Part shown: piece by piece, positions 47,351-52,411 of the stretch
Position numbering within the stretch: the first letter of the stretch is position 1
How the letters are laid out: the number at the start of each line of letters is the position of its first letter
Source: Neophaeotheca triangularis
Taxonomy: Eukaryota
Reading direction: 5' to 3'
Length of the DNA stretch: 64,000 nucleotides
NCBI GenBank assembly: GCA_054600435.1
Contig: BAAIJX010000019.1
Location: forward strand, 310,001-374,000
The notes under the pieces: generated by a model
What the model was told of the DNA's origin: nothing
Databases searched by the model: none
What the model saw: the letters and a program-made list of their open reading frames with translations, nothing else
Position numbers and translations under genes: made by a program

Positions 47351-48829
47351 TCAATCCCGTTTCTGCAACATCTTCGGCTTACCCCCAATATACACAAAAC
47401 ACAGACCCGCCGTCACGGCACAAATGCCGGCCAATACCGCATTCATGTTGCCATACCCAACACTCTGCCTCAGCTCCCCAGCCAACTCAGGTCCCAGCGT
47501 CAAGCCCGCGCTGAAAACCATACTGTTCAACCCGTAAAGCTGCGCGTACGGCCCGTCGGCGCCGAAAAAGTCCGGGTTGACTTCATAATACCGCTGCACG
47601 ACCGCGCCCGCTTCGACAATACTCGGGGCGCCGATGCCCGCGAGCCCGATACCGCAGAGACCTAGCAAGGCACCGTAGAGGATGATCTGGTCCTTGCCGC
47701 CAGCGTGGGGGAGACGCAAAAGGGCGAAGACAGGAACGAGGTAGGTGTAAGAGCCGACGGCGACCCATTTTGGACCGTAGTGGTCGACGGCCCAGCCGAA
47801 GAGGGGTCCGAGGAGGAAGTCGAAAGCGCCTAGGGGCAGGAAGAGGATGCCGGATTTGAGGCTGTCGAAGTTGAAGAGGGTTTCGGCTTCGGTGGGGACG
47901 GTGGCGTCGAAGTTGCCGAGGAGGGTGGCTTGGATGAAGGCGACGAGGAGTGCGGTTAGGAGGCGAGGGTCGGAGAGGCAGGGGAGGATGGGAATGAGGC
48001 GGCATATCTTGGGTTGGTTGGGGGAGAGCTTAAAGGAGGCGCTGTCGTCTTCTTTTTTGTTGCCGAGAAGGGGTTCTTCTTCGGGGTTTTGTTGCTCGGA
48101 GCCGTTGACGTTGTTGTTGTTCGATGAATCGTCACGAGTGTTGAGTTCGCTCTCTGTTAGATACCTGCGAGCAACTTTCTTCTCTATCACAAGTAGACGC
48201 ATGATAAAGTCTACTGCTAGGATTGCGAAGCCTATACCGAAGACACCTGGGTAGCCGGTCTTTTCATAGAGGACGCCGCCGAGGAGAGGTGCGCATAGAT
48301 TTCCGACGCTGATAAAACTGAAGATGCTCCCAATAGTCTTGCCCAAGTTCTCGGGCCCTACAGTCTCCAGACATAGAGCAAGACCGATTGTCCAGACAAA
48401 AGCGGCTGAAATGCCCTGTAGGATTCGAGCAATGGCCAGAACAGGTACACTCTCACCCAAGAATAGGAGGATGGTCGCTGCCAATAGCGCTAGCAGTCCG
48501 AGTAGAAACGGTGCTTGCCGGGTTGTCATCTTGTCCGCCAAAACACCAGCGATAGGGGAGAAGATGACGGAAGCCCCGGCGTAGGCGGCGAGCAAACCAG
48601 AAACATGGCTTTGAACGGCTTCCTTTGGTAGGCCAACGCGGTCCTGGAGCATGTACGGGAGAATTGGCACCACGAGGCCGTACAGGAAGAGATCAGTGAA
48701 GAGACCGACAGCCACCGTGGAGACGATGAAGAGGGTGTTGCTCCGCCAATGCAGACCGGCGGGTTTTTCAGAGTAGTCAGCACTGATCTGGAGGGTGTTC
48801 TTAATCTTGCTCCAGGTGGATTTGGCCAT
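47351..48829 (-). CDS. MFS transporter, vesicular amine transporter-like (DHA1)
   Basis: GLFTDLFLYGLVVPILPYML, motif A (GVLADKMTTRQAP), ARILQGISAAFVW and GPYAQLYGL. Likely start is MAKSTW at 48829. Confidence 0.9.
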   Translation of the reverse strand: MAKSTWSKIKNTLQISADYSEKPAGLHWRSNTLFIVSTVAVGLFTDLFLYGLVVPILPYMLQDRVGLPKEAVQSHVSGLLAAYAGASVIFSPIAGVLADKMTTRQAPFLLGLLALLAATILLFLGESVPVLAIARILQGISAAFVWTIGLALCLETVGPENLGKTIGSIFSFISVGNLCAPLLGGVLYEKTGYPGVFGIGFAILAVDFIMRLLVIEKKVARRYLTESELNTRDDSSNNNNVNGSEQQNPEEEPLLGNKKEDDSASFKLSPNQPKICRLIPILPCLSDPRLLTALLVAFIQATLLGNFDATVPTEAETLFNFDSLKSGILFLPLGAFDFLLGPLFGWAVDHYGPKWVAVGSYTYLVPVFALLRLPHAGGKDQIILYGALLGLCGIGLAGIGAPSIVEAGAVVQRYYEVNPDFFGADGPYAQLYGLNSMVFSAGLTLGPELAGELRQSVGYGNMNAVLAGICAVTAGLCFVYIGGKPKMLQKRD

Positions 48830-49182
48830 GATTGCGGTAGTCTCGCTGCCTCTAGGAGATGCTGCCAGGGGGGACAGTAGTAATCTCGACGGGAGGCCAA
48901 GGAGAGAAAAGACGAGATGAAGTGTTCCAACGATCGTTCGCATGACTTCATCATCTGCCAGGTACCGACTGGATCGCATATCGATCTTATCTTATCTTAT
49001 CTTCAAGACTTGTGAGGCGTTCCGTCGCTCGCGACCAACGCAACGCCCTTCACATCACCTAGCTTGCTTCACCTTCAGCGTTCACCTCTACCGACAACGC
49101 CTTGTACTCCAACCTTTACAACTGCCGCCTTCCCAATACCACCTTGCCTCAAACGGCCATAAGCTCGACCACATCTGCCAAC

Positions 49183-50105
49183 ATGGCAGAGATACAAGCG
49201 CCGGCCAACCCACCAAACAATACGTTCGTACATTGCACTCCGTACGAACGCACCTTACTCTCAGATCCCAGCTAACTCACCCACAGCGTCTATGTGAGCT
49301 CCACTCGATCTAACGCAGCTGGCCTTTGTCACAAGGAATACCCTCTGATGCAGCTAATCTAGGTCAAAAACCTCGACGAGCGCGTCAAACTCCCCGACCT
49401 GATTAGCAACCTCCGCAGCACCTTCGACGTCGTTGGTGAAGTCGTCGACATCATCGCGAAACGCAATCTCAAAGCCAAGGGCCAGGCCTTCATCGTTTTT
49501 GAAGATGCCGAGACCGCTGAAACCGCCATAGAGTCGCTGCAGGATTTCGAGTTGTTCGGAAAACCGATGAAGCTCGCGTTCGCCAAGTCGCGTTCGGACA
49601 AGACGGTGGAGCGCGAAAATGGCGCGGAAGCTTTGGAGCAGCATAAGAGAGAGAGACTCGCAGAAAAGGGTGAGCATCATTCATACTTTGCGCGTTGTAG
49701 CTATTGAGTAAGCTAATCTCGCCCTCAAATATAGACCGGAAAAAGGCCCTCGAAGAACAACAGCGCGGTTCGAACAAGCGCTCCGCCGCCCAAGCCGGCA
49801 TGGCCAACAACGCAGCCACTGCCAACAAGAAGACCACTGCCACCAACGCTATTCAGGAAGACGAGTACCTGCCGCCGAACAAGACCATCCTGCTCCGCGA
49901 CGTTGACGAGACCTATGGCAAAACCGAGCTCACAAGCCTTTTCAACCAGTTTCCAGGTTTCAAGGAAGTGCGCATGGTGCCCACGCGGCCGGGAATTGCT
50001 TTCGTCGAGTACTTTGACGAGGAGGGAAGTATTGCCGCTAAGCAGGCTTTGGGTGGAAAGTTGATCGGAAGCAAGCCGGTCAGGATTACTTATCAGAAGG
50101 CTTAG
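49183..50105 (+). CDS. U1A/U2B''(SNF)-family snRNP protein with two RRMs
   Basis: Exons 49183-49223, 49287-49293 (7 nt), 49363-49669 and 49735-50105. Spliced product MAEIQAPANPPNNTVYVKNLDERVK...KAKGQAFIVF...FGKPMKLAFAKSRSD, then RRM2 YLPPNKTILL...FKEVRMVPTRPGIAFVEY. Confidence 0.93.
49223..49250 (+). promoter_or_regulatory. U1 snRNA stem-loop II mimic (candidate U1A-binding hairpin) covering the intron-1 5' splice site
   Basis: CGTTCGTAC-ATTGCACTCC-GTACGAACG is a perfect 9-bp stem with a C-G closing pair. The loop is identical to the canonical U1A-binding loop. Confidence 0.85.
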
Positions 50106-50329
50106 GTGGGGAGTGGTTGGCGAGGTCTGTGGTGCGAGATACCCAATGGTGTGGACGGAGTGCGCTATGGAGAAGTTTTGGTCTGCGGGTCGCTCTACAG
50201 AGGAGCTCGTGCTACTGTGAAGAACAGTGAATCTTCCATGGCAATACTGAGAGGCGAAAGCTTATCCTGTATCTAGCAAAGCAGAATATTTCCCTGGCTG
50301 CATCTCATCAACACCACCCATGACTTACG

Positions 50330-51576
50330 TTACAATCTCGCCTGCGTACTCTGCTCATTCGGAGCCTTATCCACATCATCCCCATCCTCAATATGTATTT
50401 TGACAGCTCCTTTACTACGATCAATACTCGCATGCAGCGCCTCAACAGCCTCCTCGAGCTTGAAACGATGCGTAACCAAAGGTCTCAGATCCACAACCTT
50501 ATGCGCCAACAACCTCATGGCTGCGGGCCAGGAGTGATTGTAACGATTGATGAACTTGAGATCGACTTCGGCCATTGACTGCAAAGCAAAGAAAAAGAGA
50601 AAAGCCAAGTCAACAAAAGAGCCAAACCTACCGGGCAAACGCACCTAAGCGAGGGGTTGGGTTCAAGACTCACCATGTGCATAAAAGGCAAATTATCCAT
50701 CGTCTTCTTACCAACCCCAATCACCATAACCGTCCCGCCAGGTTGCGGGATCCACGCAGCAGTCACAACACTACTCTCCACTCCCGTACACTCATACACA
50801 ATCCTCGGCTGCGCCCCCAAAGCTTGTTTGACAACCTCATTCACCCTCCCCGCCGTTTCCTCAGGCCCCATCCCTCCTTCAACCCGAAAAGTCGTGCATT
50901 CCGGTACATAGCTCTTGGCAAAAGCCAGCCGCCCCTCATCCACATCCATGATGACAATCGGTCTCGCACCGCTCGCTTTGGCAATGGCCAGCGCACACAG
51001 CCCTATCGGCCCCGCGCCAGTGATGACGGCGGACTCCCCCAGTCGGATAGGCGCAAGCTCGAATCCGCGCAGCGCAACGCTGAAGGGCTCCAGCAAAGCG
51101 CCTTCGGTGTAACTCAGCGAGTCGGGCAGTTTGTGCAGGTACTCGGCCGGGTGCACGTGGTAGCGTCTGATGGAGCCATTGTGGGGAGGGGCTCCGCTGA
51201 ACTGCACGTCGCGGCAGAGATTGTAGCTGCCCGTGCTGCATTGGTAGCAGTGCTTGCACGGCACGCCGGGCTCGATGGAGACGCGGTCGCCTGGGCGCAG
51301 GTGCGTGACTGCGGAGCCCGTGTGGATGATCTCGCCCGCGCCTTCGTGGCCGAGGACGTAGGGGTGGGTTACGACGAGGGAGCCGATGCCGCCGTGGCGC
51401 CAGAAGTGTGCGTCGCTGCCGCAGATGCCGTTGGCGCGGACGCGAACGATGCAGTCGTTGGGGTTGGGGGTAAGGGGCGGTGATTCGGCGAGGTAGGCGG
51501 CGTGGTGCTCGTCTGTGTACAGGGCGGGGTTGGGGGATGGGGGTATGTAAGTTTGGGTGGTGGTGATGTTGGCCAT
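50330..51576 (-). CDS. Zn-dependent polyol dehydrogenase (L-arabinitol/xylitol/sorbitol dehydrogenase family)
   Basis: GICGSDAH, GHEGAG, structural zinc CxxCxxC..C and GAGPIG. Exons 51576-50674 and 50578-50330 join as NLPFMHM|SMAEVDLKFINRY. Confidence 0.92.
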
Positions 51577-52411
51577 GGCTTAAGTCGGGGACGGTAGGGT
51601 GAGCAGTTGTTTGGTGGAGGGTCAGGTAAATGAGTACAGAGGTATGCTACGGGTTAGGGAGGGGGATTTGGTTACGAGGTGCTTTCTGAGTGTATGCGTA
51701 CTGTGTGTAGCTATCTACATAAACCTTGGAAGTGATTACAGACAGTCACCGTGGTGGGGATTGTGGGGGTTGTCGTGGGATCCTCGGCCATTACACGTGC
51801 GACAAGTAGCGTGATAACTTTCTTTCGACTTCCTATTATTCTTGTCCAGCACGTTTCTTTTCGGTCCTTCTACTGTGGGCTTTCCCAGGAATGATGGCCT
51901 ACCGACGAGCCCAGGAAAACCATGTGCGGCCAAAACGAAAATGGCCTCACAAGCGTTCGAAGGCTGCTATGCATTCGGCACGGGGTTAAGGAATCCAGCG
52001 CCTCTTTTGATTGATCAAGGACAGTAAAAGCTGCTGCACATTGCGTGGGAAAGGTGAAAATACAGCCATTTCCACCATCACGATTCCATTAAGGCATTGA
52101 TTGATGCCCTGGAGTCCAGGAATAATATTACCCCTCTCATCTTACCGGCGTGTTACCTGCCACCTGCGACCTCTTGGGAATTTGGCTCTGTTCCTGCATA
52201 CGGGCTGTATCCTCCAGCTACTCGCTCACGCGTCATACCAGCAACGTCGTCATTCCTGCGTAAGGCCAGTTAGAGCTTTCCATTCCATTCGGAAGCTCTG
52301 CGGTCTAGCTCCTCTCACCACAACCTGAATTTAATACTGCTTTCCTTCAATAATACCTTACCTCTTTTACAACAGTTCTCACATATACTCTCCAACCACC
52401 AACCCGTCACC

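Follow-up and report, generated by a model that had tools for sequence, protein, structure and literature searches.

In the published passages on which we draw, the U1A protein is described as recognizing, through its first RNA recognition motif (RRM1), the heptamer AUUGCAC atop stem-loop II of U1 small nuclear RNA (snRNA); in the fly, the U1 loop, AUUGCACCUC, is closed by a C:G pair and the U2 loop, AUUGCAGUACC, by a U:G pair. These passages also describe a vertebrate feedback loop in which excess U1A reduces its own production by binding an imitation of the U1 site within its pre-mRNA: at this polyadenylation inhibition element (PIE), poly(A) polymerase is inhibited by two U1A molecules bound in the 3' untranslated region (UTR). 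Plant U1A, according to a published report, does not bind the 3' UTR of its own mRNA, and the yeast genes RPL7B and RPL22 are reported as cases in which a protein inhibits the splicing of its own pre-mRNA. Here we describe a 28-nucleotide (nt) hairpin of the U1 stem-loop II type in a U1A-like gene of the fungus Neophaeotheca triangularis. The hairpin lies in a 64,000-nt stretch of forward strand (contig BAAIJX010000019.1, positions 310,001 to 374,000), hereafter the window, by whose positions all coordinates are given, and its 5' arm contains the entire 5' splice site (donor) of the gene's first intron.

A stem-loop II-type hairpin at the intron-1 donor

The hairpin consists of the following parts:

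49223..49231, + strand: 5' arm, CGTTCGTAC, comprising the final base of the exon and intron positions +1 to +8, as placed by folding
49232..49241, + strand: terminal loop, ATTGCACTCC, 10 nt, closed by C49231-G49242, of the type seen in stem-loop II of U1 snRNA
49242..49250, + strand: 3' arm, GTACGAACG, as placed by sequence and folding

The initial annotation of this DNA had placed a perfect 9-bp stem, with a C-G closing pair and a 10-nt loop, at 49223-49250, and both sequence and folding bear this out. The stem on the + strand contains no mismatch; on its own, the 28-mer has a folding energy of -11.0 kcal/mol (z = -4.4, with an equally good fold in 1 of 200 shuffles), and the same 28-nt hairpin is also the minimum-energy structure within 46-nt and 187-nt contexts. 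The further claim that the whole intron-1 donor, GTTCGT (49224-49229), lies inside the 5' arm holds as well. The hairpin lies 41 nt past the ATG, at the intron-1 donor and not in the 3' UTR, and its loop opens with AUUGCAC at 49232-49238, with C, not G, at position 7. Because an AUUGCAC loop is here combined with C:G closure, as opposed to the U2 loop closed by U:G, the element is of the U1 type and not of the U2 type. On its own, ATTGCAC is present in the window at chance level (5 copies against 6.45 expected), and a hairpin surrounds one copy only. Similarly, a covariance model of the element gave a single match in the 64-kb window, with no second match in the U1A gene. Rfam scans returned no relevant family in 48900-50400 at E <= 10, and neither a relevant family nor a U1 gene in the whole window at gathering scores.

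Compared with U1 snRNA stem-loop II, the element shares the AUUGCAC start, the 10-nt loop, the C:G closure and the variable 3' spacer; unlike stem-loop II, it lies in a pre-mRNA intron and has a stem dictated by the splice donor. The fly U1 loop and the window loop differ at the last three bases only. The human U1 loop is AUUGCACUCC, to which the window loop is identical. The last three bases of the stem-loop II loop are not known to be contacted.

With the vertebrate PIE, the element has in common the recognition motif and, as proposed here, the feedback logic. The architecture is different: the PIE is a 3'-UTR element, at a fixed distance from the poly(A) signal, in which internal loops hold two U1A molecules that act on poly(A) polymerase, whereas the fungal element is a single terminal loop at the intron-1 donor, and we found at this locus neither a 3'-UTR location nor two U1A boxes in internal loops. 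The predicted output differs accordingly between the two, being intron retention for the fungal element as opposed to blocked polyadenylation for the PIE. The yeast ribosomal-protein genes RPL30, RPL22, RPS14B and RPL7B resemble the proposed system in that a protein binds a structural look-alike of its normal RNA site within its own pre-mRNA and inhibits splicing. RPL30 binds the 5' splice site region of its own pre-mRNA. Unlike the fungal case, these genes involve other proteins and motifs; the fungal regulator would be a subunit of the very small nuclear ribonucleoprotein (snRNP) that recognizes the blocked site.

Judged from its sequence, the host gene is of the U1A type (U1A / U2B'' / SNF family), with a U1A-like N-terminal RRM and a C-terminal RRM. 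Both large exons match Pfam RRM_1, giving a two-RRM protein; the nearest solved structures to exon 3 are human U1A RRM1 (E 1.2e-19) and then U2B'' (2e-17), and related proteins are named U1A or U2B'' in their sources. The coding sequence starts with the ATG at 49183, which corrects the earlier placement at 49184. We modelled the gene as follows:

49183..49223, + strand: exon 1, MAEIQAPANPPNN-T, 13 codons and 2 nt, from the ATG at 49183 to the end of an RNA contig piece at 49223
49224..49286, + strand: intron 1, 63 nt, with donor GTTCGT, CTAAC at 49272-49276 and acceptor AG at 49285-49286 (sequence, RNA contig, orthologue modelling)
49287..49293, + strand: micro-exon, 7 nt, finishing a Thr codon and then encoding Val-Tyr (RNA contig and frame)
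49294..49362, + strand: intron 2, 69 nt, GTGAGC ... CTAAT ... TAG (sequence, RNA contig)
49363..49669, + strand: exon 3, RRM1 (similarity to human U1A/U2B'', Pfam RRM_1; RNA joint 49668/49734, cut +1)
49670..49734, + strand: intron 3, 65 nt, GT..AG (joint in an RNA contig)
49735..50105, + strand: exon 4, linker and RRM2, with stop TAG at 50103-50105 (sequence, Pfam RRM_1)

RNA support came from the assembled contigs of small-share marine metatranscriptomes. One contig, 151 nt long and of depth 2, shows 6 differences in 126 nt (~95% identity) and so derives from a close relative. It reaches 49223, continues with 2 extra letters, and then follows 49358-49380 with one mismatch. This is the pattern predicted from the joining of exon 1, micro-exon and exon 3, and we therefore conclude that the donor embedded in the hairpin arm is used. 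A second contig supplies the intron-3 joint. The initial annotation had named a true donor located beyond the hairpin as grounds for refutation; the RNA joint at 49223 and the annotated N-termini of orthologues (see below) contradict it.

Retention of intron 1 is predicted to truncate the protein. As had been claimed, the reading frame of the unspliced message (open reading frame (ORF) 49063..49275) runs from the ATG into an in-frame TAA at 49273-49275, codon 30. This TAA lies within the branch-site motif CTAAC (49272-49276).

Conservation, covariation and placement of the hairpin

We surveyed orthologous loci (numbered with an L) in metagenome contigs, taking the best 80 of 272 confirmed relatives. 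A first hint was that 17 of 109 RRM1-related proteins were ORF calls reading through the region upstream of RRM1, and that these 17 contain IAH, IAL, IAP, SLH or HCT, which are ATTGCAC translated in its three frames. The 80 loci fall into these groups:

53 loci: hairpin with an ATTGCAC-type loop, its 5' arm overlapping the intron-1 donor
1 locus (L037): contig cut, with the 3' arm visible
1 locus (L060): no intron 1; hairpin 11 nt past the intron-2 donor
2 loci (L061 and L065): interrupted hairpin in intron 2, with the outer stem over the branch site (z = -2.2)
1 locus (L062): 4-bp hairpin ~105 nt upstream of the ATG, uncertain
18 loci: intron 1 present, element absent
2 loci (L076 and L080): no intron at this position
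2 loci (L056 and L071): cut too short for a call

The expectation that orthologues would carry an AUUGCAC loop on a covarying stem was thus borne out in 53 of the 80 loci, but not in the 18 that keep the intron without the element or the 2 that lack the intron.

We counted, by script and outward from the loop, the base pairs of 24 distinct hairpin versions. The closing pair is C-G in all 24. The loop starts with ATTGCAC in 23 of them and with ATTGTAC in the remaining one, which is carried by L032, L033 and L038 and matches the second PIE box. Loops are 10 nt long in 19 versions and 11 nt in 5, and their last 3-4 bases vary (TCC, ACC, ATC, TTC, CCC, AAC, ATT, ATCC, ACCC, TCCC). Stems range from 5 to 11 bp and from -10.6 to -15.8 kcal/mol. 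At each of pairs 2-7, two or three Watson-Crick types are found, and 194 of 216 cells (89.8%) are paired. Shuffles averaged 119.7 (sd 6.2), none of 1000 attaining the real count, and sliding the 3' partner by 1-3 columns dropped the paired cells to 13-53%.

There are two main stem classes: the window's class, GTTCGTAC/GTACGAAC, of 8-9 bp, and a second class, GTACGTGTC/GACACGTAC, of 9 bp. The two have no common sequence, yet both are fully complementary and both start at the donor. Compensatory changes occur within the second class, where L077 (GTATGTGTC/GACACATAC) replaces C-G with U-A and L067 (GTGCGTGTC/GACACGCA) replaces A-U with G-C, and the stem of L079 contains G-U intermediates. On a model-fitted alignment, 73% of cells were paired; both its paired cells and its covariation score surpassed those of every one of 500 shuffles, whereas its number of doubly changed pairs did not (144 of 500). 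The lower figure of 73% arises because the 8-bp class was aligned by its donor, which puts its 3' arm out of register, and we therefore relied on the loop-outward count. Searched against both strands of 268,070 bases, the covariance model found one site per locus and otherwise nothing at E <= 0.001; matches to its training sequences are expected by construction, so that it is the lack of further matches that is informative.

At the level of sequence, this pattern of fixed heptamer, fixed C:G closure, free spacer and free stem matches the published U1-type sites of U1A/SNF. It also bears on the idea that the hairpin is a constitutive attenuator that works by structure and independently of U1A, its loop being kept for folding or for another factor. 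At -11 to -16 kcal/mol, a stem that spans the donor should indeed lower U1 access without any protein. Such an attenuator, however, needs no invariant 7-nt loop or C-G closure while the stem sequence changes freely, and the pattern conserved is the one reported for U1A-type RRM1 sites, in an element located in the U1A gene itself. We consider the attenuator quite improbable.

We asked where the hairpin sits by modelling the ATG, donor and acceptor of 50 of the 54 genes with a hairpin over the donor, namely the window's and those of 49 loci (L046, L057, L058 and L078 were left out). In each of the 50, the exon-1 peptide ends at the hairpin arm. In most modelled genes pairing starts with the donor G; in 7 the stem extends into the exon by 1-2 nt, and in 6 the contiguous stem begins 1-4 nt inside the donor, the rest being covered in L003 by a bulged extension. 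Donors are GTTCGT, GTACGT, GTGCGT and GTATGT, with GCACGT once, and the introns measure 52-83 nt. The exon-1 peptides agree with the annotated N-termini of named species: in L003, MASSMPIS is the N-terminus of Fusarium oxysporum P0004, to which its RRM1 is identical too. Retention of intron 1 is predicted to lead to a premature stop in 50 of 50 genes: 42 of these stops fall within intron 1, 3 lie ahead of the RRM exon, and the remaining 5 come at codons 42-49, following a frameshift.

This placement helps to separate donor occlusion from other ways in which hairpin-bound U1A might repress its own mRNA, such as a steric block across the short intron, nuclear retention or pre-mRNA decay. The L060 hairpin starts 11 nt past the intron-2 donor and those of L061 and L065 lie mid-intron, overlapping the branch site; moreover, with introns of merely 52-83 nt, an RRM bound anywhere inside could interfere. 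The donor is nevertheless inside the stem in 53 of 56 motif-bearing loci, at offset 0 in most, and the persistence of this placement across two unrelated stems argues that donor pairing itself is selected. Repression by one of these other routes is, in our judgment, unlikely.

The donors themselves speak to the opposite sign of control, in which hairpin-bound U1A would help to bring U1 snRNP to a poor donor. GTTCGT does depart from the usual fungal donor consensus, GTAAGT/GTACGT, and the initial annotation had called the donor weak. That description suits the window's stem class (GTTCGT) but not the other class, whose donors are ordinary-looking (GTACGT, GTATGT) or GTGCGT. In addition, the donor is base-paired in the very complex that U1A would stabilize, the same intron is spliced in hairpin-less lineages, and it is not evident what purpose positive feedback would serve for a stoichiometric snRNP protein. 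Recruitment of this kind thus seems very improbable.

The distribution of the hairpin was assessed with a quick tree of the 102-residue RRM1 and 29 named proteins. In this tree, which has few columns, a long window branch and mostly unresolved forks, the window's stem class clusters with Dothideomycetes (Dissoconium, Cladosporium), the second stem class with Leotiomycetes (Lachnellula, Glarea, Mollisia) and Sordariomycetes (Fusarium, Hypoxylon), and the hairpin-less loci with Aspergillus/Penicillium, Pycnora (Candelariomycetes) and Aplosporella; lineages were verified for five named taxa. End-to-end scans of 16 hairpin-less loci found no ATTGCAC or ATTGTAC upstream of the gene or in early introns. 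One of the hairpin-less loci, L069, carries a lone ATTGCAC further along, 329 nt past the start of the RRM1 exon. Since 18 loci keep intron 1 without the element and the scanned hairpin-less loci show no early site, the proposed circuit is dispensable in some lineages.

A hairpin found at the same gene position in loci clustering with three fungal classes is difficult to reconcile with a chance palindrome, a transposon terminal repeat or a functionless inserted U1 fragment. Four further ATTGCAC heptamers do occur in the window, at chance frequency. Set against this are the compensatory stem changes and the lack of any other covariance-model match in 268 kb; we reject a transposon or U1-fragment remnant on the grounds of conservation, and regard this whole group of explanations as exceedingly improbable.

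Several loci carry variants of the element. In L061 (1440-1500) and L065, the loop ATTGCACATC caps an interrupted intron-2 stem of ~14 bp, whose outer part spans a branch-site-like GCTGAC; intron 1 of L061 is without a hairpin. In L060 (20-75), the loop ATTGCACACC tops a stem of 4 bp, a bulge and 4 bp, a fold that is not significant against shuffles (z = -0.44). The intron-2 copies in these three loci suggest that what is conserved is a U1A site on a splicing signal. A second ATTGCAC occurs in four loci only, 8-11 nt past the intron-2 donor (52 nt before the RRM exon in L014 and L016, 61 nt before it in L029 and L030), and folding gave no significant local structure there. L053 retains GTTCGTAC at the donor, ~130 nt before the RRM exon, with loop and 3' arm gone, which looks, from its sequence, like loss of the hairpin. 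The hairpin of L062 (34-71), with loop ATTGCACAAC, is followed by a CCAAT motif and may be a 5'-UTR site or chance. Its close relatives L047-L049 have ATCGCACAAC, containing ATCGCAC, at the matching place, and its covariance score is circular because L062 was in the model's training set; we did not accept it as a copy of the element.

A candidate splicing feedback on U1A

From the hairpin, its position over a donor in use, its conservation together with stem covariation, and the truncated frame upon retention, we infer a route of autoregulation that would run through U1A binding, donor occlusion, intron retention in vivo and decay. We hypothesize that the hairpin acts in cis as a regulatory copy of the site that U1A occupies in stem-loop II of U1 snRNA, with a 5' arm that doubles as the 5' splice site. 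When U1A is in excess of U1 snRNA, the free protein would use RRM1 to bind both the loop and its C-G closing pair and would lock the stem. The locked donor would then be unavailable for pairing with U1 snRNP, and intron 1 would stay in the transcript. Read to the TAA at 49273-49275, the retained message would yield a peptide of ~30 residues and would probably be subject to nonsense-mediated decay. The net effect would be negative feedback coupling U1A output to the level of U1 snRNA. We think it likely that free U1A does bind the hairpin and hide the 5' splice site, with the retained intron truncating the protein. The same interpretation, put forward in the initial annotation, gains from the comparative test (53 of 80 loci) and from the position of the donor, and loses in generality, as the element is not universal; binding, stabilization, retention and nonsense-mediated decay keep in it the status of predicted steps.

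More broadly, and with somewhat less assurance, we favor the view that filamentous ascomycetes arrived in evolution, independently of the vertebrate 3'-UTR element, at a U1A homeostat of their own. It would consist of a stem-loop II mimic built from a splice signal, at which a subunit of the snRNP competes with U1 snRNP itself. Such a system would be old (Dothideomycetes, Leotiomycetes, Sordariomycetes), mobile (two stems, intron-2 copies, one branch-site copy) and repeatedly lost.

A number of observations weigh against these proposals. Eighteen loci bear intron 1 without the element, and in L060 the donor lies outside the stem, so that donor sequestration is not universal. The premature stop is weak evidence, because most short introns would give one. 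Usage of the donor is seen in one depth-2 contig, from a relative in a metatranscriptome, and the contigs are silent on intron-1 retention, none of them covering 49264-49351. The likeness to stem-loop II is a likeness to published loops, and the U1 loops of the host fungus and of the surveyed loci may differ. Finally, the position of human U1A Arg52 (residue 39 of the exon-3 translation) is occupied by Lys, invariantly so in a 40-sequence fungal alignment. A review counts Arg52 among the human U1A residues that lock onto the loop; Lys in place of Arg52 in all aligned fungal orthologues may therefore speak against binding of the same kind.

The literature and Rfam were checked for an earlier description, as the initial annotation had left open, and none was found. 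A fungal U1A intron hairpin is not described in the main texts of the open literature searched, and Rfam holds no matching family. The main texts of two surveys of structured RNAs in fungi (PMC5640933, PMC8216456) contain neither U1A nor snRNP, and we found no fungal U1A intron hairpin in the main texts of PMC5829640, PMC9977717, PMC6325900, PMC5992148, PMC6884704 and PMC7049704. Reviews, in the passages drawn on here, list no mode of U1A feedback beyond the vertebrate polyadenylation step. Autoregulation by mimicry of a cognate RNA site is already known, including for U1A; the splicing step, the single terminal hairpin made from a splice signal and the filamentous-ascomycete lineage appear to be new.

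If the proposed feedback is true, fungi and vertebrates would have arrived by convergent molecular mimicry at control of U1A, at different steps of RNA processing. The element would be a compact, 28-nt, genetically tractable switch at which a spliceosomal protein and its own snRNP meet on one RNA site, and a natural system for studying how snRNP proteins are kept in step with snRNA levels in the cell. Ready natural mutants would be at hand in the stem classes and losses.

Further observations on donors, exons and neighboring frames

Two candidate alternative donors were considered and set aside. The first, GTACGA at 49242 in the 3' arm (+18 nt, in frame), follows merely from complementarity to GTAC: this site is absent in L077, stands at +25 nt in L036 and is unused by the RNA contig. 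The second, a GTAAG downstream of the hairpin in some loci (class A), is not conserved. In L039 (1434-1472), the donor inside the hairpin is GCACGT, not GTACGT; this locus may have a GC-AG intron, or a shift to GTATGT just past the 3' arm (out of frame, +25 nt).

The annotated Golovinomyces protein P0086 reads TCVSLHSDT before RRM1, which is the second-class hairpin translated; this read-through is probably a choice of gene model.

The micro-exon at 49287-49293 sits between short introns of 63 and 69 nt. The position of intron 2, past the Val-Tyr of RRM1, recurs in many orthologous loci, and the micro-exon region is read through in two annotated proteins, from Pycnora and Penicillium bovifimosum. 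The U1A gene is flanked by long open frames on the minus strand, which span 47351-48991 (546 codons) and 50515-51579 (354 codons), each measured from stop to stop.

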